A DNA stretch of 64,000 nt from Mobula birostris. Taxonomy: Eukaryota. Positions 7,414 to 43,197 of the stretch are shown here, piece after piece. The notes under the pieces are model-generated. The model searched no databases. It saw nothing but the letters and a program-made list of their open reading frames with translations, and was not told the origin of the DNA. The translations under genes and the position numbers were made by a program. Positions within the stretch are counted from its first letter, which is position 1; each line of letters begins with the position of its first letter. The DNA lies in contig NC_092389.1 of assembly GCF_030028105.1 (NCBI RefSeq), positions 58,839,241 to 58,903,240 of the forward strand, given 5' to 3'.

Positions 7414-8321
7414 TCAAAGCGCGGGTTTATTAATGAACTGAAGCAGCGAGGTGACCGGATATTTCAACGCACTGATCACCTGCTCCCTGAATTTCGACTG
7501 AGTCACAGCGTAAATAAATGTGTTCGTGCAGCAGCTGAAATTCCTCAGCAAATACCCGATGTTGTGAAAAATCCATTCAGAAGCATTGAAATTGAATCCT
7601 CTTCCACTGACCTGATAATATATGAAATTAACTATGAAGGTCATCCACAGGAGGATGAAACTGCCGGAGAGGGTGAAGAGTAAAACCACAGACCTCCTCC
7701 TGCTCTCCATCTCCGGGTCACTGCGGTCCCCCCCCCTGCTCTGGCCCTTCAGCCCCTTACGGACTCGACTGGCCTTTAAAATATGTCTGGCTGTCAGAGC
7801 GTTGACTGTCAGGATCACAGCGAAAGGGAGGAACGGATTTAAAGCCATATCGAGCCAATCATATCCTACCCAAACAGGGTCAGTGAAGACGCTTTGCATG
7901 GGTGTACAGAACCAAGGTATATTATTGATCATCTGTTGGGGTTCTAACATGAAGTACCGAGGAACGTTTTTCAGACAGAACAGTACGACAGATGTTGTCA
8001 GAACCACAGCCGCAGTTTTCCCGGTGCAATATTTTGTTTTCAGCTTCTGGCAGCAAATGGCGACAAACCGATCAAAGGTGAAAGTGACAGTGAACCAGAC
8101 AGAACAGTCTGTGGCTGTGAACGTCAGGAGATCGATAATTCTGCACACAGGGGTAATGTCCAGATAACTCAAAGGAAAATAATAATTATTGATCCGATAC
8201 AAAATCACCTCAGTGACAATGGTCAGTAGATCCGCCGCTGCCATGGCCACCAGGTAGCGAATGGTGCAGGTAGAGAGGCCGCAATTTCCCCAGGACAGGA
8301 TCACGATCGCCAGTAAATTCA
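7414..8321 (-). CDS. GPR139/GPR142-like class A GPCR, gene 1, exon 2 (remainder of TM1 to stop)
   Basis: Pyrimidine tract + AG acceptor (ctctctccag|TG AAT TTA); YLVAMAAADLL, FTFDRFVAICC, CTNTFIYAVT; 908 nt like gene 4 exon 2; open frame. Confidence 0.93.
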
Positions 8322-8431
8322 CTGGAGAGAGAGGTGGGGAGCGGGTGGGGTGTGAGGGAAGAGAACATACACTTGTCATTACTGAACACATTCTCCGGCA
8401 ATTACCCAAGGATCAGGTTTCAGCTGAAGAT

Positions 8432-8560
8432 GATAGAAACATAGAGAAACTACAGCACAATACAGGCTCTTCGACCCACAATGCTGTGCCAAACATGTAC
8501 TTACTTCAGGAATTACCTAGGGTTACCCATAGTACTCTGTTTTTCTAAGCTCCATGTACC
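8432..8560 (-). mobile_element. CR1 3'-end fragment in gene 1 intron
   Basis: atagaaacatagag tail followed by cagcacaatacaggc...cccacaatgctgtgcc, like the tail at 39890. Confidence 0.75.
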
Positions 8561-8819
8561 ATCAGGTGAGCTGGAGTCTGTGAACGGCTGCTAATTTAAT
8601 ATCAGACACGGGCCACATTGTCTCCGACCTGCCTTCTCTAATGTGGCGATAAGGCGATGTGCGGGTAATTGTAGGGTATAAAAAACGAGGTCCATGAAAA
8701 ACCACGATTCGTGCTATTCCCGATTCCAGTCGATAGCACCGTTTGCACTGATTTGACGGTGACTGATCAGGCTCCTAGAAGCTAAATATCTGATGGGGCC
8801 GAGAAGGGATACAGAGGGG

Positions 8820-8921
8820 GAGCAACACGCACAGGTTTATGCGGGAACTCAGCAGGTCAGGCAGCATACATAGAAATTGAACAAACATTCAATGTTTCGG
8901 GCAGAGGCCCTTCTTCAGGTC
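8820..8921 (-). repeat. Penelope-derived repeat with hammerhead-like core, gene 1 intron
   Basis: Minus: CTGAAGA-A-GGGC-ctct-GCCC-GAAAC, then gctgcctgacctgctgagttccc. Confidence 0.7.
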
Positions 8922-9122
8922 AGGTAGAAGTGCCCCGATTCACGACAGGTCTCGGAAGGAAAGCAGGGATAACCAAAGTCTGATTAGCTCTGTTAATGGA
9001 TGAACTATGCAGCTCGGTTCAGTTGGACAGCACACGTCAGTAGATCCATTCGATCACTTTGATCAATAACTCAGAAACAGTGCACTTCACAGTGTAACTT
9101 TTCCACGTCGAACCTTACTGGC

Positions 9123-9189
9123 CAGGAGCTCTAATCATTGCAATAAACACGTACAATATTTCCCTCACACACCTGTACCTGTCCAACAT
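9123..9189 (-). CDS. GPCR gene 1, proximal duplicate exon 1 (MLDRYRCVREILYVFIAMIRAP); weak GC donor, possibly dead
   Basis: Clear paralog of gene 4 exon 1 (MLDRYERVAKMLYVFIAVIGVP) including upstream sequence; donor reads CCTG|GCCAGT. Confidence 0.5.
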
Positions 9190-11006
9190 TGCAGATATTT
9201 TCTCTGTCCAGTGATTTGTCCGTCTGTGCTTCAAACGATCTCTCAGAATGAAATGTTGAGGCAGCACATGCCAAGGGTTAATAGCCTTTAGCGACTTTAG
9301 AGGGAGATCGTTAAACTTGTTGCGAACTAATTATTTTATGCAAGTGGGCAATTCTCGCAATGACAGACTTTGAGTGAATTGTGAAGCTGCATACAATGTA
9401 AATTGTGATCGTACTGAGGGCTGTAAATTGGGAACGGCACTCTTCCAGCAAGGGGAATATTTTTTCAAACAAAATCACACCGAGCCTACCGCCTCTTGTT
9501 TGTGTCGTGGTGACTTTTGTTCATCATTTGAGGAGATGTACTGAGAGTAAATCAGATCTGATCTCGTTATAACCACATCCATCTTTCTCGACGTCCCGTA
9601 ACCAACCTGAGCGTGTTCTTGTGGTGTACCAAACTTTGCCCTAGGTCAAACACATGTCTATGATCTTCATCATTGAGGGAAGTGTATGCTCCGAGAAAAT
9701 ACACGTAGCTGCCTTCTATTTGCTTAATTCTACACAGAACAAAGGAAGATAAAACACATTAACATGACCCATTGGTCCAGAGTGTCTATGCTAAACATGG
9801 CGCCAAATTAAACGGATTCTATCAAAGTACGTCCCTCTACACTCTCTGCCCGTCTGTTTGTCAACCCTCACATATGTAAGTATAGCAATCTGAATTCTCT
9901 CTTCTAAGAAGCTTTTAGACCATTTGTGTAAGTTAGTTTCTCTCAACATGAAGGAAAGTTGGAGAATCAAANNNNNNNNNNNNNNNNNNNNNNNNNNNNN
10001 NNNNNNNNNNNNNNNNNNNNNNNNNNNNNNNNNNNNNNNNNNNNNNNNNNNNNNNNNNNNNNNNNNNNNNNNNNNNNNNNNNNNNNNNNNNNNNNNNNNN
10101 NNNNNNNNNNNNNNNNNNNNNNNNNNNNNNNNNNNNNNNNNNNNNNNNNNNNNNNNNNNNNNNNNNNNNNNNNNNNNNNNNNNNNNNNNNNNNNNNNNNN
10201 NNNNNNNNNNNNNNNNNNNNNNNNNNNNNNNNNNNNNNNNNNNNNTGTGTGTCTTTCGGTCCCTGCGTGCGCGGGTGTGTACAGTGTTGATGAGTGAGTG
10301 TGCGTGCCTGATTGTGACAGTGAGCGGCTTTATCTGTGTCAATTTGTGTGCGCTGACTAATTATTTGTCTTTGCCAGACATTACGACCCGCCAGTTGACA
10401 CTAAGCCGCAGGGCTACCCGTTCCCAAGACTGGTACAAATCTAGACAATTTCCGACTGAAACCTTCCCATTGACAATATTCCGGGGAACGACCTGTGGCA
10501 GAATTCGAACAACTCTGGACCAGTTATCATAAAGTACCGGGTGTTCACTCTGATCAAAACCTCAGGAACAGTCAAGATCACAATGACGTCACCTTTCCGG
10601 AGAGCTGCCTGTTCCCAAAACTGGAACAAATCTGAGAACGTGTCATTCATGGACCAGGTGCTCACACTGATCAGTCACTGAGAAACTGTCAACAGCATAA
10701 TCATAACTTCCCCAGTAACATCGTCCCGCAGAGCTGCCTGGACCCAGCAGTAGTAGCACTCTGGTCAAAGGGTCGTTAAGGGCGATCCCATAAGTTCTAG
10801 TCGGTCCCGTATGTTCGAGGAGAGACGGAGGTTATCTTTCGTTTGTTTTTAAATGTGAGAAATCTAAATATCGAATTGACAAGATCGTATCACTGACGGA
10901 TACTTGTGCAATTTTCATCAAGTCGGAAGCTTGCAAAATGATCATATTCAGATTCACACCGGTTAACACACACAAATACCAAACATGAATTGTTCTGCTC
11001 ACTCAC

Positions 11007-11082
11007 CAGGAACTCCAATGACGGCTATCAAAACGTACAGTACTTTCTGCACACTCCAGTACTTATACCATATTTCCCACAT
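11007..11082 (-). CDS. GPCR gene 1, distal exon 1 (MWEIWYKYWSVQKVLYVLIAVIGVP)
   Basis: ATG at 11082, phase-1 donor CCTG|GTGAGT joins exon 2 in frame (327 aa); downstream intron sequence matches the start of the gene 4 intron. Confidence 0.8.
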
Positions 11083-11346
11083 TTTCTCTGTCCAGTGGTT
11101 CACCTCCTGTGCCAGAGGCTATTTCTCTCGGAATGAAGTGTTGCGGCATCACATGCCTAGGTACTTAATACCGGTTAGCAACTCCACAGGGACATTTCCA
11201 TAGATTTTAAAATTAAGGTTTCGAAATTATTTACAAATAGATTTCGTTATACAAGTACAATCCCCGAGGTGACAGATTGTGATTAATTTAGTGAAGCAAT
11301 TATGAAACTGAAAACAATGGAAATTGTTATGGTACTGAAGGATGTA

Positions 11347-12737
11347 CAATGGCAAACAAAAGTTTGGGCACCCCTCGTCAAATGTTTTGTTACTGTGAAT
11401 AGCCAAGCGAGTAAAAAATGACCTGATTTCCAAAAGGCATAAAGTTAAAAATGAGACATTTCTTCAATATTTTAAGCAAGATTACATTTTTTCCCCATTT
11501 TTATGTACAGTTTGAAAACAGCAAAAATGGAAAAGGGCCCGAAGCAGATGTTTGGGCACCCTGCATGGTCAGTACTTAGTAGCATCCCATTTGGCAAGTT
11601 TCACAGCTTGTAATCGCTTTCTGAAGCAACTAAGAGTATTTCAATTATTGTTTGGGGAATGTTCGCCCATTCTTCCTTGCCAAAGGCTTATAGTTCTGTG
11701 AGGTTCTGGGGCCGTCTTGCAAGCACGGCTCTTATGAGGTATATCCCAGATATCCGATGATGTTTGGGTCGAAGGACTGTGAAGTCCAATGCAAAACCTT
11801 CAGCTTGCTCCTCTTCAGGTAGTCCATTGTGGATTTTGAGGTGTGTTCAGGATCATTTTCCTGTTCTAGAAGCCATCCTCTTTTCATCTTCAGCTTTTTT
11901 ACAGACGGTGTGATGTTTGATTCCGGAATTTGCTGGTATTTAATTGAATCCATTCTTCCCTCTACCAGTGAAATGTTCCCCATGCCACGGGCTACAACAC
12001 AAGCCCGAAGCATGATCGATCCACCCCCATGCTTAACAGTTGGAGAGGTGTTCTTTTCATGAAATTCTGCACCTTTTTTTCTCCAAACATACTTTGGCTC
12101 ATTGCGGCCAAAACGTTCTATTTTAACTTCATCACTTCTCAGGACTTGTTTTCAAAATGCATCAGGCTTGTTCAGATGCTCCTTTGCAAACTTCTGACGC
12201 TGAATTTTGCGGTGAGGACGCAAGAAAGGTTTTCTTCTGATGACTCTGCCATAAAAGTCATATTTGTGCAGGTATCGCTGCACAGTAGAACAGTGCACCA
12301 CCACTCCAGAGTCTGCTAAATCTTCCTGAAGATCTTTTGCAGCCAAACGGGGGCTTTGATTTGTCTTTCTGGCAATCCTGCAAGCAGTTCTCTCAGAAAG
12401 TTTTCTTGGTCTTCCAGATCTCAACTTGACCTCCACCATTACTGTTTAGTGCCATTTCTTAATTACATTACGATCTGAGGAAACGGCTAACTGAAAACGC
12501 ATTGCTATCTTCTTACAGACTTCTCCTGCTTTGTGGGCATCAATTATTTTAATTTTCAGAGTGCTAGGCAGCTGTTAAAGGAGCCCATGGCTGAGCCCAT
12601 TATCTGAGAGCTCAAATCCATTGGGGTGCCCAAACCTTTGCATGGTGCTCCTTTCTTTTTTTTCAACGCTAAAATTGTACAAAACAAAATTAATACACAA
12701 ATACCGCTTAAAATGTTGAAAAGAATGTTTCATCTTT
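11347..12737 (-). mobile_element. Tc1/mariner transposon (IR/DR type), defective, right end lost at a CR1 fragment
   Basis: TA|CAATGG...AAGTTTGGGCACCC left end; inner repeats near 11545 and 12622; transposase pieces RSGRPRKLS, RRKPFL, QENDPEHTSKST, SQSFDPNII. Confidence 0.92.
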
Positions 12738-12751
12738 TGGTCTCCAAATTT

Positions 12752-13295
12752 GCAGTTTGTGCAGTTTTGGTCTCCAGATTTGAGGAAGGACATTCTTGCT
12801 ATTGAGGGAGTGCAGCGTAGGTTCACAAGGTTAATTCCCGGGGTGGCGGAACTGTCATATGTCGAAAGATTGGAGTGACTGGGCTTGTATACACTGGAAT
12901 TCAGAAGGGTGACAGGGGATCTGATTGAAACATATAAGATTATTAAGGGATTGGACACGCTGGAGGCAGAAAGCATGTTCCCGCTGATGGGTGAGTCCAG
13001 AACCAGAGGCCACAGTTTAAGAATTGGGGGTAGGCCATTTAGAACGGAGTTGAGGAAAAACTTTTTCACCAGAGAGTGGTGGATATATGGAATGCTCTGT
13101 CCCAGAAGGCTGTGGAGGCCAAGTCTCTGGATGCTTTCAAGGAAGAGATGGATAGAGCTCTTAAAGATAGCGGAATCAAATGTTATGGGGTAAGGCAGGA
13201 ACTGGATATTGATTGTGGCTGATCAGCCATGATCAAGGTGAATAGCGGTGCTGGCTTGAAAGGCCGAATGACCAACTCCTGCACCTATTGTCTAC
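12752..13295 (+). mobile_element. CR1 LINE 3' fragment
   Basis: Nearly identical to 53115-53640; GDLIETYKIIKGLD, ESRTRGHSLRI. Confidence 0.9.
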
Positions 13296-13667
13296 TACTA
13301 TTATTGAATACGCATGTGGACGTATGTTGAGACATTGAACTTTGTTCTGGCTCTATTTTAAAGTGGAGGCGGCTATTTTGTGAATATTTTGAAACGATTC
13401 CTGCTCTGGGATAGTCTAATCTGTATGGGGTCTGCACAGATTTGGGCTGTGCACCGATTTAGAGATGCACGTAGATTTTGGGGTCTGTCTGTGAATGTTG
13501 AGGTGCATACGGATTTGGCGCAGCATGCAGCTTTGCGGATGTGCGCAGATTAGGGGTACGTCAGTAAATGTGTTCGTGCACAGGGATTTTGCCGTGTCTG
13601 TTCCTTTGGGGCTACACACTGATTTGAGGATTGACTGCGTGTTTGCCGGTATGCACATCTTTGCGTG

Positions 13668-14318
13668 TATGATTATGATTATGAGGACACGCAGTCCCCT
13701 TTTATTGTCATTTAGTAATGCATGCATTAAGAAATGATAAAAAAACAATTCCAGAATGATATCACGAAAACACATGGCAAACCGACTTAAAAACTAACAA
13801 AAACCACATAATTATGACATATAGTTACAACAGTGCAAAGCAATACCGTAATTTGATAAAGAACAGACCATGGCACTGTAAAAAGTCTCAGAGTCTCTCG
13901 AAAGTCCCATCATCTCACGCAGACGGTAAACCTCCAGCGCCGCTAACTTGCCGATGCAGCATCCCGGAAGCATCCGACCATCGTCCGACTCCGAGTCCAT
14001 CCGAAAAACTCTGAGCCTCCGACCACCTATTCGGCACCAAGCACCGAGCATCATCTCTGCCGAGCGTTTGGACCCCGGCCCCGGCAACAGGCGATACGCA
14101 AAGCCGAGAATTTAGGGCCTTCGTCTCCGGAGATTCTTGACCGCACAGTAGCAGCGCCACGAAGCAGGAATTTCAGAGGTCACTCCAGATGTTCCTCTGC
14201 GTTTTCACGTCTGTCTCTATCAAATCCGAATTGATGCACGGCACCCCTAGTTACACATATCGATATTGATTCGGAACGGCCACGCGCGCTGCATCGCGCG
14301 CCATCTTCTCCTCCCTCC
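13668..14318 (-). mobile_element. Non-autonomous retroposon (SINE or LINE 3' end) with short tandem tail
   Basis: (ATGATT)n tail at the left end, minus-strand AATAAA near 13702, CpG-rich body interrupting AT-rich flanks; no coding similarity recognised. Confidence 0.5.
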
Positions 14319-15353: not shown

Positions 15354-15412
<59 letters not shown>

Positions 15413-15434
15413 CTCACTCATCACTCACACACAC
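15354..15434. repeat. (CA)n microsatellite
   Basis: Direct reading. Confidence 0.97.
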
Positions 15435-15519
15435 GTAAGTACACTTCCTTATCAGTTTTTGGGCGGCTGTTGTTTTTATTTACATTAATGATTTGGATAA
15501 GCACAGAACTAATAAACTA

Positions 15520-16215: not shown

Positions 16216-16244
16216 CAATGAACTCAATACTCTCACGCGGAAGC

Positions 16245-16450
16245 ATAGACTGCCAGGTACAGAATGAACCCCATCTCACGCTGTATCAGAGACTGCCGGG
16301 TATAGAATGAACCCCATCTCACGCTGTATCGGAGAGTGTCAGGTATAGAACGAACCCCATCTCACGCTGTATCAGAGACTGTCAGGTATAGAATGAACCC
16401 CATCTCACGCTGTATCGGAAACTGTCAGGTATAGAATGAACCCCGCACTC
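16245..16450. repeat. Minisatellite, 43-bp variant unit
   Basis: gtatagaatgaaccccatctcacgctgtatcagagactgtcag, about 4.5 copies. Confidence 0.9.
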
Positions 16451-16451
16451 T

Positions 16452-16970
16452 CAGAATCAGAATCAGAATCAGGGTTATTTTCACAGGTATGTGACGTGAA
16501 ATGTGTTAACTTAGTAGCGGCCGTTCAATGCAATACATAATCGAGAACAGAAAAAAAAACAATAATGATAATAATAATAATAAAGCATATAAAAATAATA
16601 ATGATACTAAAAATGTAGATCAATTACAGTGTGGGTATATTAAATAATTTAAAAAGTGCAAAATCAGAAATACCGTATATTTAAAAAGTGAGATATTGTC
16701 CAAACATTTAATGTCCGTTTAGGAATCGAATGGCAGAAGGGAGGAAACCGTCCCTCAACCACTGACTGTGTGATTTCAGGCTTCTGTACCTCCTACCTGA
16801 TGGTAACAGTGAGAAAGGGGCATGCCCTGGGTGCTGGGAGTCCTTAATAATGGACGTTGCCTTTCTGAGACACCGCTCCCTCAAGATGTCCTGGGTACTT
16901 TGTAGGCTAGTGCCCAAGATAGAGCTGACAAGATTTATATCCTTCTGCACTTCTTTCGGTCCTGTGCAGT
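16452..16970 (-). mobile_element. Rex1/Babar LINE 3' fragment inserted in the minisatellite
   Basis: SIIKDSQHPGHAPFSLLPSGRRYRSL; (CAGAAT)n tail at 16452. Confidence 0.85.
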
Positions 16971-17580
16971 CTCACACTGTATCATAGATTGACAGGTACA
17001 GAATGAACCCCACACTCTCACACTGTATCATGGACTGACAGGTACAGAATGAACCCCACACTCTCACACTGTATCATGGACTGACAGGTACAGAATGAAC
17101 CCCACACTCTCACACTGTATCATGGACTGACAGGTACAGAATGAACCCCACACTCTCACACTGTATCATAGACTGACAGGTACAGAATGAACCCCACACT
17201 CTCACACTGCATCATAGACTGACAGGTACAGAATGAACCCCACACTCTCACACTGCATCATAGATTGACAGGTACAGAATGAACCCCACACTCTTACACT
17301 GCATCATAGACTGACAGGTACAGATTGAACCCCACACTCACACGGCATCATAGACTGACAGGTACAGAATGAACCCCACTCTCTCAAACTGTATCATAGA
17401 CTGACAGGTACAGAATGAACCCCACTCTCTCACACTGCATCATAGACTAACAGGTACAGAATGAACCCCACACTAACACGGCATCATAGACTGACAGGTA
17501 CAGAATGAACCCCACACTCTCACAATGTATCATAGACTGACAGGTACAGAATGAATCCCTCACTCTCACACTGTACCAGA
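16971..17580. repeat. Minisatellite, 46-bp unit, about 13 copies
   Basis: gacaggtacagaatgaaccccacactctcacactgtatcatagact repeated; period 46 (16991, 17037, ...). Confidence 0.95.
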
Positions 17581-17691: not shown

Positions 17692-17694
<3 letters not shown>

Positions 17695-18733: not shown

Positions 18734-18741
18734 TATATAAA
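18734..18741 (+). promoter_or_regulatory. TATA box of GPCR gene 2
   Basis: TATATAAA about 85 nt upstream of the ATG; the paralogous site in gene 3 reads TGTATAAA (~26438-26445). Confidence 0.55.
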
Positions 18742-18820: not shown

Positions 18821-21167
18821 ATGGTGTATCCGATCATCTGGCGTATAGAAGACGTTTACTATCCTTTTATTTCTGCCTTTGGGATTCCCGGTAAGCCGCG
18901 GTGTCAGCTGCTGTGGGTGGATGTTGAAGTTTACTCCCAATGATGTGATTGATTCTACCACTGGTTTAAACTGTCACATTTCTGTCCCGGTATTCCGCAT
19001 TTCAGGAATGGAGTGGAAACACCACGACTAGAGATGTTGGGATTTCTATCTAAAAGCAAACCGCTGCAGGAAATCAGCCAATCAGCCACTTTCTGTGGGA
19101 CTGAGCGGGTCAGGCAGCGTTCTTCCAGCGGTTTGTGATTAATAATGAGATGTTCTGCTCTCTGCTTTTGGTCTTGTCGAAGCTGCACTTCACTTGCAGA
19201 TATTGTGTTTATACAGCCCGCGGACCTTATGCCAATTGATCGTCTGCATTTGAATGTGAGTGATTGTCTACTTAAGAGCACCAATCAATCAATCCATCGA
19301 CTGCAGTAACACTTTAGCAAATGTGAGGAGTTCCGTGTTGTAACACGAAACTGTCGTGGATTTTTAGTAAATATCTGAGATATGACTGAATATAAAGCAG
19401 GTGATGGACAGCACAATGAAGTCAATGCTGAGTCAATTAACACACCCGCCGTGGCGCCTCATAGTTATCAATACTGTGAAATGTTTTATAATATATCTAC
19501 ATCTGACACGGTTCCGGACATCTGACTGCGGCAGCGAGTTTGAATTCCTCTCCCCGCTTCCCTGTGCAGGATTCAGTGGGAGGCGTCATGTCTGTCTGTG
19601 AGGTCGTGTCAGGCTGCGCTGCATCTGTTGTAATCAGTCTATGTTCTGTTGTAAAGTCAGTGAGGTTCCCGAATAGGAAACAAACTCGGGGAATGCTGGA
19701 AACACGGAGTCCCAAGCAGCTTGTATGGGAAGAGAAACCGGTTAACACTTGTGTCAGGGGTCTCTCGGAGAACAGTTCTGAAAGAGAGATACTTTAACTA
19801 TTTTCCACATATTTTGTTTCGTCTGGATGAGTGTTTCCAGCATTTCCTGTTTTTGTTCCGTCCGTCGGCTGTTCTGTCGCTGACAGGGATCGCCATGGAA
19901 GTTGTTGATTGTCTAATGGAAGAATCCCACCATCAGCGTCCGGATTTATTCATTTCTACCAGACGAGACGCAGGTAGAAATTGTTCCATCAAGTATTGGC
20001 CCTGAGGAGTTAGTTACCCAGTTTTAGCTCTCCGCTGTCAGTTCACATTGAGGAAATCAGCGAGGAATCCATATTCAGATCATATTGACTTTATTTTACT
20101 GTGTAAATTCCTTCTCTGTCCCGCCAGCTCTGCGCCCTCTCTCGACCCTCCCACCGCTAAATGTAACAATAAAGTGGAAATATCACAGGATCTCCTCAAA
20201 CTGCCGCATTGGCTTCTGCTCAGTATTTTCTCAACTTGCTGTTCCCGTCTCTCTACCAGCGAACTTGGTGGCGATTGTGATCCTGTCCCGGGGAAAGTGC
20301 GGTCTCTCCAAATGTGTCAGTCGCTACCTGGTCGGAATGGCAGCGGCCGATCTCCTGGTCGTTATCTCGCATCCGCTGATGAACTGGACTGCTCTGATTT
20401 ATTTTCCCCGATCGATCCTGTTCATCACTCCTGTGTGCAGACTCGATCAATGGTTGATTTCTGCGAGCACTGCGGCCTCAGTCTGGCTGACTGTCGCTTT
20501 CACCGTCGATCGATTTGTGGCGATTTGCTGTGAGAAACTGAAAACAAAATATTGCACCGAGAGAACGGCGGCTGTGGTTGTCGGGACAGTGAGTGTGCTG
20601 GCCGGTTTGGAGACTGTCCCCTCCGGCTTTGCATTCGGGCCCAGAGAAATAATTGATGGTGTTCCCTGGGGTTGTGTTTATACACTCAGTTACACAAACT
20701 CTCCCTCATGGGCGGCATTCGACATGTTTCACCTCATTTTAACCCCTTGTGTCCCATTCTTTCTGATTTTACTGTTCAATATCCTGACGGTCAGGCGGAT
20801 TCTAGCGGCCAGTCGAGCCCGCAGGGGGCTCCGGGGACAAAAGAGTGGAGAGAATGACAAGGACCGGGAGATGGAGAACCGACGCAAATCCATTGTTTTG
20901 CTCTTCAGCATAACCGGTAGTTTCATACTGTTGTGGGGAACACGGGTGATATTTTCTGTCTAAAAACGGATTTCAATGGCTTTTTTTGGTTCTGTCACGG
21001 ATCCCCGTTACATCACCGGACACACAGCGGACATGCTGCAGGTTCTCAGTCCCTGCACCAACACGTGTATTTACGCCGTGACTCAGAGCAAATTCCGAGA
21101 GGAACTAAAGAATGCGGTGAAATACCCAATGAATCGGATTTTTAAATTCATAAAACGTGAGAACTAA
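18821..21167 (+). pseudogene. GPR139-like GPCR gene 2 (exon 1 18821-18890, exon 2 20260-21167) with one in-frame TAA at 20961-20963
   Basis: Exon 1 MVYPIIWRIEDVYYPFISAFGIP with CCCG|GTAAG donor; acceptor ctctaccag|CG AAC; DRF motif; TAA aligns with TAT in gene 3; frame continues through TM7 (CTNTCIY) to 21167. Confidence 0.88.
19678..19860. repeat. Palindromic (fold-back) Penelope-derived element in gene 2 intron
   Basis: ggaatgctggaaacac ... gtgtttccagcatttcc inverted arms; paralog at ~27298-27478. Confidence 0.65.
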
Positions 21168-23431: not shown

Positions 23432-24768
23432 ATGAACACTGCACTCTCACACTGTAGAGGTACAGAATCAAAGCCACACTCGCACACTGTATCGGAGACT
23501 GATAGGTACAGAATGAACTCTACACTCTCACACTGTATCCAAGACTGACAAGTACACAATTTTCACCACACTCTCATACTGTAGCATAGACCGACGGGTA
23601 CATAATGTACTCCACAGTCTCGCACTGTATCGGAGACTGACAGGTACAGAATGAACTCTGCACTCTCACACTGCAGCATAGACTGACAGGTACAAAATGA
23701 ACTCCACACTCTCACACTGTAGCACAGACTGACAGGTACAGAATGAAATCGGCGCTCCCACTCTGTATCGGAGACCGACAGGTATGGAATGAACTCCACA
23801 CTCTCACACTGCAGCAAAGACTGGCAGGTAGAGACTGAACTCTGCACTTTCACATTGTAGATTAGATTGACAAGTACAGAATGACTCCCACACGCTCACA
23901 CTGTATCGGAGACTGATAGGTACAGAACGAACTCTGCACTCTCCCGCTGTAGCATAGAATAACTGGTACACAATGTACTCCACCGTCTCGCACTGTATCG
24001 GAGACTGACAGGTACAGAATGAACAGTGCACTCTCACACTGTAGCACAGACTGACAAAGACACAATGAACTCCACACTCTCACATTGCAGCACAGACTGA
24101 CAGGTACAGAATGAACTCCACACACTCACACTGTATCGGAGACTACAGGTACCTAATGAGCTCCACACCCTCACACTCTAGCATAGACTGACAGGTACAG
24201 ATTTATATCGACACTTTCACTCTGCATCGGAGACGAGCAAGTACAGAGTGAACTCCACACTCTCACAATGTATCCGAGACTGACAGGTACGGAATGACCT
24301 CCACACGCTCACAATGTAGCTTAGACTGCCAGGTACAGAATGAACCCCACACTCACACACTTTATCGGAGACTGGCAGGTACTGCACGAACTCTACACTG
24401 TCACACTGTAGCATCGACTGACAGGTACACGATGAACTCCACAGTTTCGCACTGTATCGCAGACTGACAGGTACAGAATGAATACTGTACTCTCACACTG
24501 CAGCACAGACTGACAAGTACAGAATGAGCCCCACACTCTCATAATGCAGCACAGACTGACAGGTACAGAATGAATCCCACGCTCTCACACTGTAGCATTT
24601 ACTGACAGGTACAGAATGAATCCCACGCTCTCACACTGTAGCATTTACTGACGGGAACAGAATGAACCCCACACTCTCACACTGTAGCATTTACTAACGG
24701 TACAGAATGAACCCCACACTCTCACACTGTAGCATTTACTAACAGGTACAGAATGAACCCCACATTCG
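23432..24768. repeat. Minisatellite, ~46-bp unit, diverged, roughly 29 copies
   Basis: Same family as 16971-17580 (gactgacaggtacagaatgaactccacactctcacactgtagca). Confidence 0.95.
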
Positions 24769-25275: not shown

Positions 25276-26524
25276 TCACAATGTACCACAGGCTAGGAGA
25301 TACAGGAGGAACACCACAATCCTGCAATCTATGCATCTGTTTCTGGCTGTCTTTCTGCCTGCTTAACCTATATATTTGTCACTTTGCCTAGCGGTTTCTC
25401 TCTCCCTCGTTATCTTACTTCTTACATTTTATTTCATGGTTGTCTTTATCTCGTTCATTTCCAGCCACGCTTCACCTATTCATCCTCAATTTCCAGTTTT
25501 TTTTCTGTATTATTTAACCGTCTGCCCATTCCTCTGCATAGTAAATATTTCTTCTCAATTTCTTTTGAACTTTGACAGATTCATGATGCTCATACATCGG
25601 CAAACATCAGACTGTTACATCAGCAACATGACACACAAAATGCTGGAGGAACTCAGCAGAGTTCCTTGTTTTGACCCGGATTTCCAACATCTTCAGATTA
25701 TCTTGTGTTTGTGCATTAGCAACGTGTTCATTTTACCGTTTCCACCCTGATCTCGGTCTCTCTATTGTATCTTTTTTCGATTCTCTGTTTGTGTATTTCA
25801 AATTGTATTGACTTCATTACGTACAGGCTTCATATACATGAGAAGTACAAATCTTTGTTTTTTTCTCTGTCTAAATTTGCAATGTGCAATTTATAGTGAC
25901 TTACAATAAACACTATGTACAATAGGACAGTCACTATAACATAGAAATNNNNNNNNNNNNNNNNNNNNNNNNNNNNNNNNNNNNNNNNNNNNNNNNNNNN
26001 NNNNNNNNNNNNNNNNNNNNNNNNNNNNNNNNNNNNNNNNNNNNNNNNNNNNNNNNNNNNNNNNNNNNNNNNNNNNNNNNNNNNNNNNNNNNNNNGAAGG
26101 ACTGAAGGACGGTTCAAAATGGGAAACTGCAGGGACAGAGGTAGGGATCGGTCAGTGTCGCTGGTTTCCGTTCAGAGATGAATAATTAGCCAACAAAAAG
26201 ATGAAATCTGTAAGTGTAGCTGCTTCGTGACAAAGCTCAGTCTTTGAAAATAAATCTACCGGCCCATTTCCACCAGAGACAATGCTGAGGAAATGCCAAA
26301 GAATTTTGATGCATTTGTCTCCAATCGCCGCAATATTTACAATAGAGACAATGGTATTGAATTAAAGTGTTTGTTCAAAGGTCTGTAACTGAGAAAGTTG
26401 GTGAGGTGTATACCCGCGTCTCCGGAGACAGATCCTCTGTATAAATCAGGGCCGCGTGGAATGCATCAGCTGTCTGCCGGAGCTGGGAGTACAGGAGCAA
26501 CACAGATCACAGCTGCTCACTGGA

Positions 26525-26594
26525 ATGGTGTATCCAGTCATCTGGCGAATACAAGGCGTTTACTATCCATTTATTTCTGCCTTTGGAATTGCCG
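26525..26594 (+). CDS. GPR139-like GPCR gene 3, exon 1 (MVYPVIWRIQGVYYPFISAFGIA)
   Basis: ATG at 26525, phase-1 donor GCCG|GTAAG; paralog of 18821-18890. Confidence 0.88.
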
Positions 26595-27889: not shown

Positions 27890-28791
27890 CGAACGTGGTA
27901 GCGATTGTGATCCTGTCCCGGGGAAAGTGTGGTCTCGCCAAATGTGTCACTCGCTACCTGGTCGGAATGGCAGCGGCCGATCTCCTGGTCGTTATCTCCC
28001 ATCCGCTGCTGAGCTGGACTGCTCCGATTTATTTTCCCCGATCGATCCTGTTCATCACTCCTGTGTGCAGAGTCATTCTATGGTTGATGAATGCGAGCAC
28101 TGCCACCTCAGTCTGGCTGACTGTCGCTTTCACCGTCGATCGATTTGTGGCTATTTGTTGTGAGAAGCTGAAAACAAAATATTGCACCGGGAGAACGGCG
28201 GCTGTGGTTACCGGGACAGTCAGTGTGCTGGCCGGTTGGGAGACTGTCCCCTCCGGCTTTGTATACGGACCTGGACAAATAATTGATGGTGTTCCCAGGG
28301 GTTGTGTTCCTACACCGAGCTTCGCAAACTCTGCCTCATGGGCGGCATTTGAAATGTTTCACCTAATTTTAACCCCTTGTGTCCCATTCTTTCTGATTTT
28401 GCTGTTCAATATCCTGACGGTCAGGCGGATTCTAGCGGCCAGTCGAGCCCGCAGGGGGCTCCGGGGACAAAAGAGTGGAGAGAATGACAAGGACCGGGAG
28501 ATGGAGAACCGACGCAAATCCATTGTTTTGCTCTTCAGCATAACCGGTAGTTTCATATCGTTGTGGGGAACAGGGGTGGTATTTTCCATCTATCAACGGA
28601 TTTCAATGTCTTTTTTCGGTTCTGTCACGGATCCCCGTTACATCACGGGACAGACAGCGGATATGCTGCAGGTTCTCAGTTCCTGCACCAACACGTGTAT
28701 TTACGCCCTGACTCAGAGCAAATTCCGAGAGGAAATGAAGAATGCGGTGAAATACCCATTGAATTGGATTTTGAAACTCATTAAACATTAG
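27890..28791 (+). CDS. GPR139-like GPCR gene 3, exon 2 (intact; 323 aa spliced)
   Basis: Acceptor ctcttccag|CG AAC; YLVGMAAADLL, FTVDRFVAICC, CTNTCIYALT; open to TAG. Confidence 0.93.
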
Positions 28792-33110: not shown

Positions 33111-33129
33111 ATTGAACTTCACAGAAAGT

Positions 33130-33460: not shown

Positions 33461-33489
33461 ACTGGGCATGACCCTTGCAATTGATGAAT

Positions 33490-35340: not shown

Positions 35341-35344
35341 GCCA

Positions 35345-38120
35345 ATTCTCGAGTTTGTTCGTCTATAAATACTTCAATAATTAATGCAATATGAATTTTG
35401 ACCTCTAGATGATGCACCCCTAAAAAATCTATATAGCCAAGGTGAAAGAATATTAGAAAAGGATTTGAAAAAATTCTACTGTGAAACCATTCGAACCAGG
35501 TGCTTTACCTGAATTCATCGAAAAAATAGATAAAGATCCCACAGAATGTGTACAATATAGGCCTATAACTTTGCTGAATGTAGATTCCAAATTTTTTTCT
35601 AAAATATTAGCGGCCAGATTGGAAAAAGTATTGTCTCAAATTATTTATGTTGATCAGACGGGTTATATTAAAAATCGTTGTCTTTTTTTAATATTAGGAG
35701 ATTAATGAATATTGTTTTTACTCCTTCACCTTGAACTCCAGAACGTGTCATTTCACTAGGTGCTGAGAAAGCGTTTGACAGGGTTGAATGGACGCATTTA
35801 TTTAGTTCGACGTTTATATCTTGGACTAAATTAATATACTTTACCCCTTCGGCGTCGGTATTTACCAATAATCAGAGATCTCCTATTTTTCAGTTGTTTG
35901 GCGGCAGCAGGCAAGGTTATCCTCTTAGTCCATTGCTGTTTGATATTGCTTTAGAACCCTTGGCCATTGCTATTCGTGAATCAACTATTATATTTGTTGT
36001 CACTCGTGGGAATGAAACACCTAAGTTATCACTATACGCTGATGATTTATTACTATATATTTCTAACCCCGAAATTCCGGGCACTCCTATCCTTGCTTGA
36101 TAAGTTTAGTAATTTTTCGGGCTCTAAATTGAACCTTAATAAAAGTGAACTTTTCCCTTTAAACATGCAGGTTCCAATTTATAGATGTTTACCATTCAGA
36201 CTGCTTAATGATTATTTTACTGATCTGGGTGTTAAAATTACTAAGAAACATAAGGATTTATTTAAGCATAACTTTTTTTTACTTTGAATTGATCAAATTA
36301 ATCACATTTTTATTAAATGGTCGCCATTGTTTCTCTCAATACTTGGTCGAATTAACGCTATTAAGATGATTCTCCTACCAAAACTTGTATACTTGTTTCA
36401 AGCATTACCAATTTTTATTTCTAGATCCTTCTCTGATACTTTGGATTCTAAAAATCTCTTCATATATATGGCAGAACAAAAATCCTAGATTAAGTAATAA
36501 ATATTTACTGAAGTCTAAAGAGGGCGGTGGTTTGGCTTTACCAAATTTTAGATTTTACTATTGGGCAATTAATATCCGATATTTAATATTTTGGACACAG
36601 GATTTGGATATAACTTTACGCCCGCAATGGGTAAACCTGGAATGTAAATCTCTCCAAGGGTTTTCTTTGACTTCCATTTTAAGGACTTCTTCACCATTTG
36701 TTAGTTCTAAATTAAATAAACAAATGGTTAATCCAATAATTAAACACAAAATACAAATAAGGTTTCAATTTCGTAATTTTTTTTGGCTTGACCCAATTTA
36801 TTTCATCAAGCCCTATTACGTCTAATTTTTTCTTTCAACCTTCTATTATAGATCAAGCTTTTTCGGTATGGAAAATGAAGGGTATATTTAGCTTTCGTGA
36901 TCTATTTTGGAAAACTGTTTCATATCGTTTGAACAGTTATCTAATAAATATAATTTGCCTAGATCTCACTTTTTCAGATAATTACAAATTAGAAACCTTT
37001 TAAATATTAATTTACCCACATTTCCAACTTCACATCCAATTGATATTATGGAAAAATTCCAAGTTTAAATCCTTTTCAGAAGGGTTTAATAGCATTCATT
37101 TATCATTTGAATTTGAAAATAAATTCAGGTATATCTGACAAAATTAAGACTGAATGGGAAGGAGAACTCCAACTTCCTTTACCTATAGAAAAATGGGGGG
37201 AACATTTCAATTAGTTAACACGTCCTCTTCATGTGCTAAACATACATTGATACAATTTAAGGTGGTACATAGGGCACATAAGTCTAAAGACAAATTAACT
37301 CGTTTCTATGCAGGTATAAGCCCAATTTGTGATCGATGCCATTATGAAGTTGCTTCCTTGACTCATATGTTTTGGTCTTGCCCTTTCTTACATAAATATG
37401 GGAAAGATATCTTTGATATTATTTCTACTGTTTTGCATATTAATTTACAACCACACCCTGTTTCTGCAATATTTGGGTTACCAATGATGGATGATAGTTA
37501 CTTCTCCCCTTCATCCTGTCGAATGATTGTTTTTTTTTAACATTAATGGCTAGAAGATGTATCTTATTGAACTGGAAAGAGGTCAATCCCCCTACTACAT
37601 TTCAATGGTTTTCTCAAACTACATCTTGTTTAAATTTAGAGAAAATTAGAAGTGGCACCTTCGACCCTTCCATTAAATTTGAAGAAACTTGGAGACCATT
37701 TATTCAACATTTCCATATGATATAATTTGACCTTCTCGAATCCTTTTTTTTTTAACTTATAATACACGTATAGAGGAGTGGAGTTAACGACATTAATGAT
37801 TTTATCTAATGTAATATGTTAGCCTGTCTTTTATTTTTCTATAGTCCTGTTTTCAGTTTTATTTAGTTTAGGTTAATATTGCTTAGTTTAATTAATATGT
37901 CTTTTTTTTTCTTTTCTAATTTGTTTTTTTTTAGATTTTTTCTCATTTATCCTTCTACCATGTTTAATTATATTTAGAGTCTGGGAAACTTTATACATCT
38001 GTATTATTACCAATGCAATATTTGCAATGCCAATTATTAATAATGTCATCCCAATCTCTGTTTATTAATAGTGTTGCTATGTTTATAATTTTGAAAATTA
38101 ATAAAAAGATTGGAAAATAA
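35345..38120 (+). mobile_element. L1-clade LINE, 5'-truncated, frameshifted ORF2
   Basis: YRPITLLNVDSK, RQGYPLSPLLF, LYADDLL, GGLALPNF, C-terminal CDRC...HMFWSC; T-rich 3' UTR ending aataaaaag. Confidence 0.9.
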
Positions 38121-38194
38121 ATTTTGAACTCTGTTCTTGCTTTTTTTTAAATGGCGTCAGCCATTTTGTGAACAGTTTTGTGAACAGTTGTGAA

Positions 38195-38337
38195 CAGATA
38201 CATGGATGGGAGGTGTATGGAGGGATATGGTCCGTGTGCAGGTCAGTGGGACTAGGCAGAAAATGGTTCGGCACAGCCAAGAAGGGCCAAAGGGCCTGTT
38301 TCTGTGCTGTAGTTTCTATGGTTTCTATGGTTTCTAT
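38195..38337 (+). mobile_element. CR1 3'-end fragment with (GTTTCTATG)n tail
   Basis: Near-identical to 49832-49966. Confidence 0.9.
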
Positions 38338-39486
38338 AAGTTTGAAATGATTCTTGCTCTGGGATTATCTCATGAGCAGGTGGTGGTGTCTGCTGATTTG
38401 GAGCTGTTACAAGTCTCAAGGTTGTTTCATTTGTACATGCATTAATAATAAATGCAGTTTGAATCTTGACCTCAGCTCTTGCTTCTTGATGGTTGAGGTA
38501 GACATTTTGTGAAGTGCTTGAAATGAGAGTTCGAGGGCACCTGCAGTTTTCGGAGACAGATGGGAAGGTTCTAAACCAAGGGGGATGAACTGAATTGGAT
38601 ACGGACACGAGTATATACGGGCAGGGTCAAGCANNNNNNNNNNNNNNNNNNNNNNNNNNNNNNNNNNNNNNNNNNNNNNNNNNNNNNNNNNNNNNNNNNN
38701 NNNNNNNNNNNNNNNNNNNNNNNNNNNNNNNNNNNNNNNNNNNNNNNNNNNNNNNNNNNNNNNNCAGAGACACGGACACACACATACGCACACAACCACA
38801 CTTCCTTATCTCCGTTTCCAGCTCTCTGCCGTGTTCTTTGACACATACGGGGTGATAGGATTAGACTGCTGAGTTTGATGACCATGCGTTATGGTTAGGG
38901 ATAGGTCCTGAACGCGCCCACAGATGTTCTGATTATGACTAAGTCACTGAAGATATTAGAGGGTTGCGTGGACGTGAAAGTGTTTATTCATCACCACAGA
39001 CATTTTCTTGGAGACCCTCTCGGTAGAGTCCCCCGAACACAAACTGCATTGCGAATTTATAATCTTGAGGAGAATGGTAACAGTAGGTGATTCAATACTA
39101 TTTCAAAAGCTACAATGACATAATTTACTTCAATATTCTGTGTTTGACAAATGGTTCCTTTGAAGTACATATTTACAGTAAAAGCACATTTAATTGTTAA
39201 GACACCTCAGAGGGTTCAGTTACCTTTGTTGGGACAAACTAACTCCCACAAATGTCTAAATAGTAATTCAGAAAATTAAACACAAACTGTCACCGCGGGT
39301 ATTGCAGCTGTCTGAGGTAATCGGCTTGTAAATACTGTAATGTGAAACCCTTTATTTTTAAATCTGTTGAATCTGTCCCTGTGGAGTAGCTAAATGGCAT
39401 TAAAACCACAGGCATGTGCTGCCTTAACATTTCACTCAGAGACACCGCGCAGGGGGACAAGTCACTGGACAGAGACAATATCTGCA

Positions 39487-39553
39487 ATGTTGGATAGGTA
39501 CGAGCGTGTGGCGAAAATGTTGTACGTGTTCATTGCCGTCATTGGAGTTCCTG
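39487..39553 (+). CDS. GPR139-like GPCR gene 4, exon 1 (MLDRYERVAKMLYVFIAVIGVP)
   Basis: ATG at 39487, phase-1 donor CCTG|GTGAGT, in frame with exon 2. Confidence 0.88.
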
Positions 39554-39889
39554 GTGAGTGAGCAGAGCAATTCATGTTTGGTATTTCTGAGTGTTAACCG
39601 GCGTGAACCTGTTTATGACAATTTTACAAGTTTCCCACTTGATGACCATTACAAAAATAATCGACAGAGATATCGATCCCGTCAGTTCAACACTCTCATG
39701 CTCAGTACGTATTGATAAGTGGAATTAAGCCTCTGTCTGTCTTTTAACTCACGGGATCGACTTGAACGATGTTCTTTCCTTTAATGACACCATGTCCAGA
39801 TTTATCCCAGTGTAGGGGAGGGGAATCTCCCCGTAAAGGGTTGACTGCGGGGGGGGGGGGGTGGGATGGTTACATTGTGAAGTTCCCTC

Positions 39890-41585
39890 TATAGAACATA
39901 GAACATAGAATAGTACAGCACAGTACAGGCCCTTCGGCCCACAATGTTGTGCCGAACCTCAAACCCTGCCTCCCATATAACCCCCCCCCACCTTAAATTC
40001 CTCCATGTACCTGTCTAGTAGTCTCTTAAACTTCACTAGTGTATCCGCCTCCACCACTGACTCAGGCAGTGCATTCCACGCAAAAAACACTCTCTGAGTG
40101 AAAAACCTTCCTCTAATATCCCCCTTGAACTTCCCACCCCTTATCTTAAAGCCATGCCCTCTTGTATTGAGTAGTGGTGCTTTGGGGAAGAGGCGCTGGC
40201 TATCCACTCTATCTATTCCTCTTATTATCTTGCACACCTATATCATGTCTCCTCTCATCCTCCTTCTCTCCAAAGAGTAAAGCCCTAGCTCCCTTAATCT
40301 CTGATCATAATGCATACTCTCTAAACCAGGCAGCATCCTGGTAAATCTCCTCTGTACCCTTTCCAATGCTTCCACATCCTTCCTATAGTGAGGCGACCAG
40401 AACTGGACATAGTACTCCAAGAGTGGCCTAACCAGAATTTTATAGAGCTGCATCATTACATCGCGACTCTTAAACTCTATCCCTCGACTTATGAAATCTA
40501 ACACCCCATAAGTTTTCTTAACTACCCTATCCACCTGTGAGGCAACTTTCCGGGATCTGTGGACATGTTCCCCCAGATCCCTCTGCTCTTCCACACTACC
40601 AAGTATCCTGCCATTTACTTTGTACTCTGCCTTGGAGTATGTCCTTTCAAAGTGTACCACCTCACACTTCTCCGGGTTGAAATCCATCTGCCACTTCTCG
40701 GTCCACTTCTGCATCCTATCAATGTCTCTCTGCAATCTTCGACAATCCTCTACGCTATCTACAACACCACCAACCTTTGTGTCGTCTGCAAACTTGCCAA
40801 CCCACCCTTCTACCCCCACATCCAGGTCGTTAATAAAAATCACGAAAAGTAGAGGTCCCAGAACAGATCCTTGTGGACACCACTAGTCACAATCCTCCAA
40901 TCTGAATGTACTCCCTCCACCACCACCCTCTGCCTTCTGCAGGCAAGCCAATTTTGAAGCCACCTGGCCAAACTTCCCTGGATCCCATGCCTTCTGACTT
41001 TCTGAATAAGCCTACCGTGTGGAAACTTGTCAAATATCTTACTAAAATCCATATAGATCACATCCACTGCACTACCCTCATCTATATGCCTGGTCACCTC
41101 CTCAAAGAACTCTATCAGGCTTGTTAGACACGATTTGCCCTTCACAAAGACATGCTGACTGTCCCTGATCAGACTATGATTCTCTAAATGCCCATAGATC
41201 CTATCTCTAAGTATCTTTTCCAACAGCTTTATCACCACAGACGTAAGGCTAACTGGTTTATAATTACCCGGACCACCCCTACTACCTTTTTTGAACAAGG
41301 GGACAACATTCGCCTCCCTCCAATCCCCCGGTACCATTCCCGTGGACAACGAGGACTTAAAGATCCCAGCCAGAGGCTAAGCGATCTCTTCCCTCGCCTC
41401 GTGGAGCAGCCTGGGGAATATTCCGTCAGGCCCCGGGGACTTATCCGTCCTAATGTATTTTAACAACTCCAACATCTCCTCTCCCTTAATATCAACATGC
41501 TCCAGAACATCAACCTCACTCATATTGTCCTCACCATCGTCAAGTTCCCTCTGATTGGTGAATACCGAATAAAAGTATTCATTGA
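39890..41585 (-). mobile_element. CR1 LINE, 5'-truncated, antisense in gene 4 intron
   Basis: RT ORFs 40840..41349, 40238..40843, 39959..40237 (KFADDTKV); (ATAGAAC)n tail at 39890. Confidence 0.95.
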
Positions 41586-41859
41586 GTATCTGAGATATTG
41601 ATCAGAGAAAACCCCTAGTCCTGTATTTCACCTCTCCCTGTGGAGATCACAGTCGGATCCCGCTGACTGTTGGTTAATAATTGGGTCCGATCACTTGGAT
41701 CAGAGTCCTTGGATCTGCTGACAAGAGTTATCAAATTGAACTGCGCTGTGGAATTAATCCTTAACGGACGCGCTCAGCCTCCGGTTACTAAGTTGTCGCT
41801 ACTTTCCCCTGAGATCCGTCGTAAATCGGGGCAGCGTTTCGTCCTGAAGACGGTCTCGG

Positions 41860-41935
41860 CCCGCATCAAGAGTTTGTTCAATTCCATGGATGCCGCCTGC
41901 CCTGCTGAGTTGCACCAGCATTTTGTGCGTGTTAC
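41860..41935 (+). repeat. Penelope-derived repeat with decayed hammerhead core, gene 4 intron
   Basis: gtcctgaagacggtctcggcccg...gcctgccctgctgagttgcaccagcattttgtg. Confidence 0.6.
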
Positions 41936-42289
41936 TCCCCTCTGTATCGCTTCTCGGCCCCCTCAGATGCTGAGTTTCCAGAGACCTGGTGAGTCACGGT
42001 TAAATCGGTGAAACCGGCCCCATCAGCGACTGGAATCGGGATCAGCACCGATTGTTCTTCTCCATGTCGCTCGTTCTTATCGCCGACGATTGCCGACTCA
42101 TCATCTTATCTGCACACTGAAGAAGGCAGGTTAGAGACAGTGTGACCCGTGTCTATTGTTAGATTAGCAGCCGCTCACAGAGTCTAGCACTCCTGAGGTT
42201 CAGCTGAAACCCGATCCCGGGTCAATTCCCGGAAAATAAATTCAGTTATGCCCACTGTCTGCCCTCTCTCTCTGTCTCCCCCTCTCCAG

Positions 42290-43197
42290 TGAATTTAGTG
42301 GCGATTGTGATCCTGTCCCGGGGAAAGTGCGGCCTCTCTACCTGCACCACTCGCTACCTGGTGGCCATGGCAGCGGCCGATCTACTGACCATTGTCACCC
42401 AGGTCATTTTGTATCGAATTAATGTGTATTACTTCCCGTGGAGTTTTCTGAGCATCACCCCTGTGTGCAGTGTTATCGAAGTCCTGACGTTCACAGCCAC
42501 AGACTGTTCTGTCTGGTTCACCGTCACTTTTACCTTTGATCGGTTTGTCGCCATTTGCTGCCAAAAGGTGAAAACAAAATATTGCACCGGGAAAACTGCG
42601 GCTGTGGTTCTGACAACAACCGGCGCAATGTGCTTTCTGAAACACGTCCCCCGGTACTTCACACTCGAACCCAGAGTGATCATCGGCGACGTACTGTGGT
42701 TCTGTGTGATGAAAGACAATTACTTCACCGACCCCGGGTGGGTGGGATATGACTGGTTCGATACGGTTTTAACTCCGTTCCTGCCTTTCGCTGGGATCCT
42801 GCTGCTCAACGCTCTGACAGTCAGGCACATTTTAGTGGCCAGTCGGGTCCGTAAGGGGCTGAAGGGTCAGAGCAAGGGGGAGAACCGCAGTGACCCGGAG
42901 ATGGAGAGCAGGAGGAGGTCTGTGGTTTTACTCTTCAGCCTCTCCGGCAGCTTCATCCTCCTGTGGATGACATACGTTGTAAATTTCATTTATTATCAGG
43001 TCTCAGGAAAAGGATTCGATTTCAATGATTCTGAACGGATCTTTCAGCTCGTCGGGTTTTTGCTGAGGGATTTCAGCTGTTGCATCAACACATTTATTTA
43101 CGCGGTGACTCAGTCAAAATTTAGGGAGCAGGTGATCAGCGCGGTGAAATATCCGGTCTCCTCGGTGCTTCAGTTGATTAATAAAGCCGCGTCCTGA
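42290..43197 (+). CDS. GPR139-like GPCR gene 4, exon 2 (intact; 324 aa spliced)
   Basis: Acceptor cctctccag|TG AAT TTA; YLVAMAAADLL, FTFDRFVAICC, CINTFIYAVT; close paralog of gene 1. Confidence 0.94.

Follow-up and report, generated by a model that had tools for sequence, protein, structure and literature searches.

Vertebrate chemoreceptor repertoires generally consist of clustered paralogs with pseudogenes among them and a variable ligand pocket. The nematode srw receptors are related to FMRFamide and myosuppressin receptors, show high rates of gene birth and death, and have been speculated to sense environmental peptides (PMC2576165). GPR139 and GPR142 also cluster with the FMRFamide/myosuppressin receptor group (PMC8514136, PMC11004728). 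Sharks and rays have been described as poor in G protein-coupled receptors (GPCRs; PMC8455134), and published shark inventories, which covered only the six known chemoreceptor families, gave 65 chemosensory genes for the catshark (PMC6368271), in agreement with an earlier note on the DNA studied here, which held that cartilaginous fishes have few classical odorant receptors. Here we describe an array of four receptor genes, g1 to g4, at 7414..43197 of a 64,000-nt stretch of Mobula birostris contig NC_092389.1 ("the window" is this whole stretch, and all positions are counted within it). The four genes belong to a large, fast-changing receptor repertoire of sharks, rays, and chimaeras that is mislabeled GPR139 in databases, and which bears on the question of how sharks and rays reach chemical sensitivity with so few receptors.

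The repertoire resembles known birth-and-death sensory GPCR families, and it comes from a lineage not known for such expansion in vertebrates. With the OR, TAAR, ORA/V1R, V2R, and MRGPR repertoires it shares clustered paralogs, pseudogenes, a variable pocket, and a conserved cytoplasmic face, however, it is a separate receptor lineage whose window members match only 7tm_1. No OR, TAAR, ORA/V1R, V2R, TAS1R, or TAS2R model was found among the Pfam matches of the window proteins, nor did a classical chemoreceptor structure turn up among the 17 Protein Data Bank (PDB) matches to g4 or, for a family profile, among the top 60 listed of 514. With srw it shares birth-and-death expansion from the FMRFamide/myosuppressin receptor group, but the expansion is independent. 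At E ≤ 0.001 none of the four window proteins matched the Srw model PF10324, while of three unnamed outgroup proteins two did, and a minority of Atlas neighbors carry it. The earlier note called the family uncharacterized, and we found no description of it, or of its expansion, in the literature on GPR139/GPR142 in sharks and other cartilaginous fishes, with subscription journals mostly uncovered. GPR139 occurs 0 times in the main text of the paper on the catshark genome (PMC11979771), and the section text of a ray tandem-cluster survey does not name the family, though its figure labels or supplements might (10.1101/2025.06.08.657570). This chondrichthyan repertoire is real, large, and apparently undescribed.

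Size, turnover and origin of the family

Searching the window with the four open reading frames (tblastn) returned exactly four receptor loci. Identity is 78% between g1 and g4 and 86% between g2 and g3, as opposed to 49-52% across these pairs, which bears out the two subfamilies (1+4, 2+3) proposed in the earlier note. In a Pfam search 7tm_1 (PF00001) was the sole match for each of the four proteins (E 6e-22 to 2e-20), and the anchors N1.50, D2.50, C3.25, R3.50, P5.50, and W6.48 were found; on these signatures we assign the genes to the class A (rhodopsin-like) GPCRs.

Protein searches were made in 90%-identity clusters, with the best 120 matches per query listed, and all counts rest on annotated relatives. 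The g4 query gave 2229 proteins at E ≤ 0.001 from 3983 candidates and the g3 query 2165 from 4261, totals that may reach beyond the family, only the best 120 of each being listed. Every named row among those 120 came from a shark or ray (117/117 for g4, 119/119 for g3), nearly all of them labeled "probable" or "putative GPR139". Without four tandem-fused models and four unnamed rows, the named top hits formed a set of 231 rows. These included at least 86 from Heterodontus francisci, at least 33 from Heptranchias, at least 28 from M. hypostoma, at least 20 from Pristiophorus, at least 18 from M. birostris, at least 12 from Rhinoraja, and fewer from others, all of which are lower bounds drawn from top hits that isoforms and faulty models may inflate, and in which 90% clusters hide near-identical copies (one cluster contains eight M. 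birostris proteins). This is far more than the handful of copies that the earlier note had named as a finding against its proposal, and the chemoreceptor count could change with 86 or more distinct clusters that one shark alone has under the "probable GPR139" label assigned automatically. Clustering at 50% left 115 representatives at E ≤ 1e-30; nine of ten deep representatives looked up were named, all of them chondrichthyan and Callorhinchus among them.

Species labels on a fast tree of the 231 rows changed 48 times against a shuffled mean of 135.6, indicating that much of the expansion is lineage-specific. Each window subfamily includes both sharks and rays in our trees, and both subfamilies therefore predate the shark-ray split. 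The best M. birostris protein match to g4 exon 2 was 98%, and the best matches to g1 and g3 were 79% and 85%. Database models P0001, P0014, and P0121 have long or odd N-termini, unlike the 22-25-residue exon 1 of the window genes, and a comparison of this kind suggests that the small first exon of the family is frequently mis-annotated.

Human GPR139 was the top PDB match for g4 (47.5 bits, E 1.4e-11), for the family profile (96 bits, E 1.6e-26; next, the neurotensin receptor at 78.5 bits), and for an amphioxus protein and the two orphan types described below. After GPR139, the PDB neighbors are the neurotensin and ghrelin receptors, and chemokine receptors follow further down. These matches place the window genes in the broad GPR139/GPR142-related group, with GPR139 as the nearest characterized receptor. 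The family has in common with GPR139 a two-exon gene, the DR motif, and W6.48. It differs in being multicopy, with 49-86% identity inside one window where GPR139 is conserved; in having Cys3.25 (115 of 118 g4-like and 115 of 117 g3-like homologs) where GPR139 aligns Asp; in mostly lacking Pro6.50 (5/118 and 0/117); and in its longer extracellular loop 2 and intracellular loop 3 (ICL3).

We rejected orthology to GPR139. That gene comprises two exons and shows 70% identity between human and zebrafish (PMC7318219); the window proteins are distant from it and do not retain its Trp/Phe site, and the 47.5 bits of g4 to human GPR139 lie below the 70-139 bits that g4 reached, in a separate search, against types A and B and unnamed invertebrate-like proteins. 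The closest bony-vertebrate gene is a separate orphan, type A, rather than GPR139. Type A is an uncharacterized "probable GPR139" gene of salamanders, frogs, a caecilian, and sturgeon (for example Xenopus tropicalis XP_031757816.1, Pleurodeles XP_069092602.1, and sterlet RXM35349.1). Type B, under the same label, occurs in coelacanth, a teleost, and one UniRef entry. We note in passing that P0348, P0397, and P0413 (type A) and P0349 and P0364 (type B) represent two orphan GPCR genes, conserved among bony vertebrates other than mammals and distinct from GPR139 despite the automatic label. These may be the "NMOGPR" and "Orphan 139-like" families in Table 1 of PMC5207463, where the relationship is unclear.

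The type A query gave 25 matches from 1675 candidates, namely 20 amphibian clusters with no two headed by the same species, one sturgeon cluster, and four chondrichthyan ones. As far as a word-seeded search can tell, this suggests a single conserved copy in amphibians and sturgeon. Type A was sister to the chondrichthyan set (support 99/98) in a tree of 30 rows for which three unnamed invertebrate-like proteins served as the root. Monophyly of the chondrichthyan set was weaker (85/83), and type B and the amphioxus protein (P0375, so labeled through 59% identity to a Branchiostoma protein) fell further out. A 62-row tree had the same shape; true GPR139 and GPR142 are absent from both trees. Grouping types A and B as one bony-vertebrate clade was weakly rejected (p-AU 0.029). 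Type A and the expansion have in common Cys3.25, CC after DR, an acidic-Pro-Glu motif before transmembrane helix 6 (TM6), and a short N-terminus, whereas type A differs in having one cluster per listed amphibian species and an invariant predicted pocket. The apparently single-copy Xenopus gene is a practical starting point for finding the ancestral ligand.

Predicted pocket, inner face and Trp/Phe site

To compare ligand-facing with other residues we used 29 pocket-facing and 31 lipid-facing positions in the outer helix halves, taken from a class A consensus rather than from a structure model. Mean entropy was higher in the pocket than at lipid-facing positions in the g4-like set (1.74 vs 1.11, 118 rows, p 0.017) and in the g3-like set (1.86 vs 1.12, 117 rows, p 0.011), and the order was reversed in 22 amphibian type A orthologs (0.10 vs 0.49, p 0.005), with mean identity similar among the three sets (0.71, 0.68, and 0.76 for the amphibians). 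Pocket exceeded lipid in all five sets drawn from a single species or genus (p 0.0005, 0.007, 0.0498, 0.066, and 0.18). Variation peaked at 2.61, 2.65, 3.29, 3.32, 3.33, 6.51, 7.35, 7.36, and 7.39. Scored at eight sites picked after the entropy results were known, pocket signatures numbered 42 in 45 Heterodontus rows vs 1 in the 22 amphibian ortholog rows. The cytoplasmic helix halves were nearly fixed (entropy 0.44 and 0.54).

Within the window, amino acid differences between g1 and g4 fell at 54 of 153 outer-half positions vs 22 of 171 inner-half ones (p 2e-6), and those between g2 and g3 at 29 of 136 vs 13 of 165 (p 0.001). The inner half is clearly constrained, with nonsynonymous divergence (dN) of 0.07 and 0.04. 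The variable extracellular surfaces of the earlier note are thus borne out, in the concentration of differences in the outer half and in pocket entropy above that of lipid-facing positions. With a predicted pocket that varies above a nearly constant inner face, the family is built like a ligand-diversified repertoire whose members share one signaling output.

Mutagenesis of GPR139 showed that F3x33, H5x43, W6x48, and N7x38 are needed for activation (PMC5430874), and structures add E3x32 and R6x51 to the ligand site (PMC12775434). Mapped onto the family through the g4-GPR139 PDB alignment, two of the four activation residues are retained in each window gene and R6.51 in one of the four genes. 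All four activation residues occur together in 0/118 g4-like and 1/117 g3-like homologs. Because these residues are not retained, Trp/Phe sensing is not a family property, and amino acid sensing by inheritance from GPR139 is not supported in the form the earlier note suggested (two residues per window gene; one homolog in 235 with all four). Type A retains three of the four in 22/22 rows, and the family ancestor may have bound chemistry similar to Trp/Phe.

Gene structures, duplication and possible gene conversion

First exons were sought with a position-weight profile built from 59 homolog N-termini. The scan gave five candidates, four of which splice GT..AG in phase 1 onto a large exon. Coding exon 1 is 76, 70, 70, and 67 nt and the intron 2685, 1369, 1295, and 2736 nt in g1 to g4, respectively. 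The products are open in g1 (328 residues), g3 (324), and g4 (325; N1.50 is residue 24), and g1 lies on the minus strand, facing away from g2-g4 on the plus strand. All four genes have DRF in TM3, NTxIY in TM7, and a TATA-like element (consensus match only) at -87/-88 from the ATG. The earlier note had read the locus in this way, with a tiny phase-1 exon 1 (67-76 nt, 4/4), a short N-terminus, both motifs, and a stop in one copy. The number of coding exons, two, is that of GPR139, and the intron position is presumably the same as well. The features are as follows.

7414..8321, minus: g1 exon 2 (second half of TM1 to stop), intact
9123..9189, minus: spare degenerate exon-1 copy in the g1 intron; frame open, GCCAGT in place of the GT donor
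11007..11082, minus: g1 coding exon 1, 76 nt, phase 1, donor GTGAGT
11165..11170, minus: g1 TATA-like element, 88 nt before the ATG; consensus match only
16231..17575, plus: arrays of a 43/46-bp minisatellite that open the first duplication unit, upstream of g2
18734..18741, plus: g2 TATA box TATATAAA, 87 nt before the ATG; consensus match only
18821..18890, plus: g2 coding exon 1, 70 nt, phase 1, donor GTAAGC
20260..21167, plus: g2 exon 2, carrying TAA at 20961-20963
20772..20927, plus: 156-nt tract identical in g2 and g3 (g3 28402-28557), TM5-ICL3-TM6; candidate gene-conversion tract
23458..24764, plus: 46-bp minisatellite, 28.5 copies, at the g2/g3 unit junction, upstream of g3
26438..26445, plus: g3 TATA-like element TGTATAAA, 87 nt before the ATG; consensus match only
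26525..26594, plus: g3 coding exon 1, 70 nt, phase 1, donor GTAAGC
27890..28791, plus: g3 exon 2, intact
39399..39405, plus: g4 TATA-like element, 88 nt before the ATG; weak consensus match
39487..39553, plus: g4 coding exon 1, 67 nt, phase 1, donor GTGAGT
42290..43197, plus: g4 exon 2, intact

The premature TAA of g2 lies where TM6 ends; both g3 and P0121, the nearest database protein, have Tyr in its place. We regard g2 as a probable young pseudogene; with seven gaps of 131-274 N in the window, the stop could also come from faulty sequencing. The spare exon-1 copy in the g1 intron is accompanied by an upstream region. It is probably the relic of a partial duplication and possibly an alternative first exon.

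Together g2 and g3 make up one tandem duplication with a unit of ~7 kb (approximately 16.2-23.4 kb and 23.4-30.9 kb). A 46-bp minisatellite opens each of the two units, the arrays lying 1.2-1.8 kb upstream of g2 and g3; in the window no such array was found upstream of g4, or of g1 on its own strand. The 46-bp arrays may mediate unequal crossing-over. Local duplication, the g2 pseudogene, and the lineage-specific bursts described above fit the tandem birth-and-death family that the earlier note had proposed.

Silent sites also differ between the two faces of the receptor. At fourfold-degenerate sites, g1 and g4 differ at 6 of 77 cytoplasm-coding positions vs 13 of 41 elsewhere (p 0.001), and g2 and g3 at 3 of 75 vs 9 of 62 (p 0.037); aligned introns and flanks differ at 0.18-0.25 (g1/g4) and 0.07-0.14 (g2/g3) per site. 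We preferred this test because a permutation test on identical runs mixes purifying selection with conversion. The simplest reading, which two pairs only can suggest, is gene conversion between paralogs that persists where specificity is untouched. An alternative is constraint acting on the RNA or DNA itself.

Proposed function, alternatives and neighboring elements

We propose an origin of the repertoire in a single orphan class A GPCR of the GPR139/GPR142/FMRFamide-receptor-like group, a gene that amphibians and sturgeon apparently still have as one copy. The data show that copies arise through local duplication and die through point mutation, that predicted pocket residues diversify, and that the cytoplasmic half stays nearly fixed. 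Each paralog would bind a different water-soluble ligand, and ancestry hints, though not strongly, at peptides or amino acid derivatives. All paralogs would feed one G-protein pathway, and gene conversion would help to keep the inner face uniform. Our guess is that the ligands are external and the receptors reside in chemosensory cells of the nose, mouth, gill, or skin. With nematode srw as the precedent, external chemosensation is our best guess for the family, with a probability of roughly 0.45. More tentatively, we speculate that this is an overlooked chondrichthyan chemoreceptor family, larger than the known olfactory and taste repertoires combined, which arose from a peptide-receptor-like orphan GPCR in parallel to srw, with conversion holding the signaling face. 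If true, sharks and rays would no longer be animals that rely on only about 50-70 receptors for sensing chemicals, as the present view has it.

Several points weigh against a sensory, ligand-diversified repertoire. Two of the five single-lineage sets were not significant (p 0.066 and 0.18). Pairwise ratios of dN to synonymous divergence (dS) give no clear positive selection (outer half 0.57 and 0.76), and the pocket values of 1.53 and 0.73 come from 29 codons only. The pocket and lipid positions follow the class A consensus rather than a model of these proteins, and the hit sets were picked by similarity to the queries, with isoforms and faulty gene models possible among them. In a catshark brain and olfactory library, the 50 most specific genes as reported include no GPCR (PMC11979771), a weak point because V2Rs are also missing among those 50. 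The same paper reports that shark OR and V2R paralogs are often expressed in spleen, testis, and rectal gland, and repertoire-like evolution therefore does not fix the tissue. As for the locus itself, the contigs of 4 of 24 listed sequencing runs over 39300-43400 cover the g4 intron and exons alike. Part of the stretch is contained in 23 of the 24 listed rows, none on record as RNA, and the exon-1 to exon-2 joint is absent from the 15 joints listed of 165, which is no evidence either way.

The strongest competitor of the chemosensory reading, though unlikely, is immune or irritant surveillance, with receptors on granulocytes, mast-like cells, or nociceptive neurons that respond to microbial peptides, venoms, or cationic compounds. 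Mammalian MRGPR and formyl-peptide receptors detect such ligands, and the sequence signature would be identical to that behind the chemosensory reading. Cartilaginous fishes are reported in the whale shark paper to lack MAS1 and related receptors (PMC8455134), which would leave the niche open. About 15 kb downstream of g4 there is a gene of the TRIM type (RING/B-box/coiled-coil), but linkage to a single TRIM gene is weak, and among PDB neighbors GPR139 and the neurotensin and ghrelin receptors rank above chemokine receptors. Were the family immune, it would be a new innate recognition repertoire.

We consider it improbable that these are receptors of sperm, testis, or the reproductive tract diversified by sexual or species-recognition pressure. 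Turnover among close relatives is rapid, as the M. birostris match of 98% for g4 beside best matches of 79% for g1 and 85% for g3 illustrates, and several catshark V2R genes and or2 are testis-enriched (PMC11979771). But missing close matches may reflect unannotated copies or the 90% clustering.

Slightly less probable still is mostly neutral amplification of redundant, drifting copies in repeat-rich DNA. It would fit the satellite arrays where the duplication units join, the presence of both a pseudogene and a stray exon 1 within a set of four, and outer-half dN near whole-gene dS (0.91 and 1.09). The constrained inner half (dN 0.07 and 0.04), a pocket that varies more than the lipid face, subfamilies common to sharks and rays, and the TATA-like element retained at -87/-88 in all four genes argue otherwise. 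Internal nutrient or neuropeptide sensors like GPR139/GPR142, with paralogs splitting endogenous ligands or tissues, are the least probable of these, since human GPR139 as best PDB match and the three of four Trp/Phe-site residues in the amphibian sister gene (22/22 rows) are set against dozens of distinct pockets per species and lineage-specific turnover, unlike endogenous-ligand receptors, and against an ortholog control with 1 signature in 22 rows vs 42 in 45 for Heterodontus.

Around the array, the TRIM-type gene (plus strand) has a RING and B-box exon at 57827-58252 followed by a coiled-coil exon at 60450-60746; its later exons were not located within the window. A 56-bp tandem repeat (8 copies, 96% matches) occupies 61953-62407 in the same region. 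Rfam gave 0 matches in the window. A largely intact LINE at 46276-49307 (plus) encodes an ORF1 with a GDSL-esterase domain and then endonuclease and reverse transcriptase, and further reverse transcriptase fragments lie at 40238-41376 (in the g4 intron) and 50553-53382. Another at 200-655 (minus; RVT_1, E 8e-28) we take to be from an LTR retroelement. A 330-residue frame at 45014-46006 (minus) matches Pfam ALKBH8_N and is presumably the tail of another LINE family. By eye, a Tc1-like transposase remnant without a Pfam match lies at 59140-59502 (minus), with a related copy at 11345-12126. Finally, contigs of runs X1 and X2, which belong to one study, skip the segment 41797-41957 (161 nt) in the intron of g4; it is present in X5 and is probably an insertion polymorphism.

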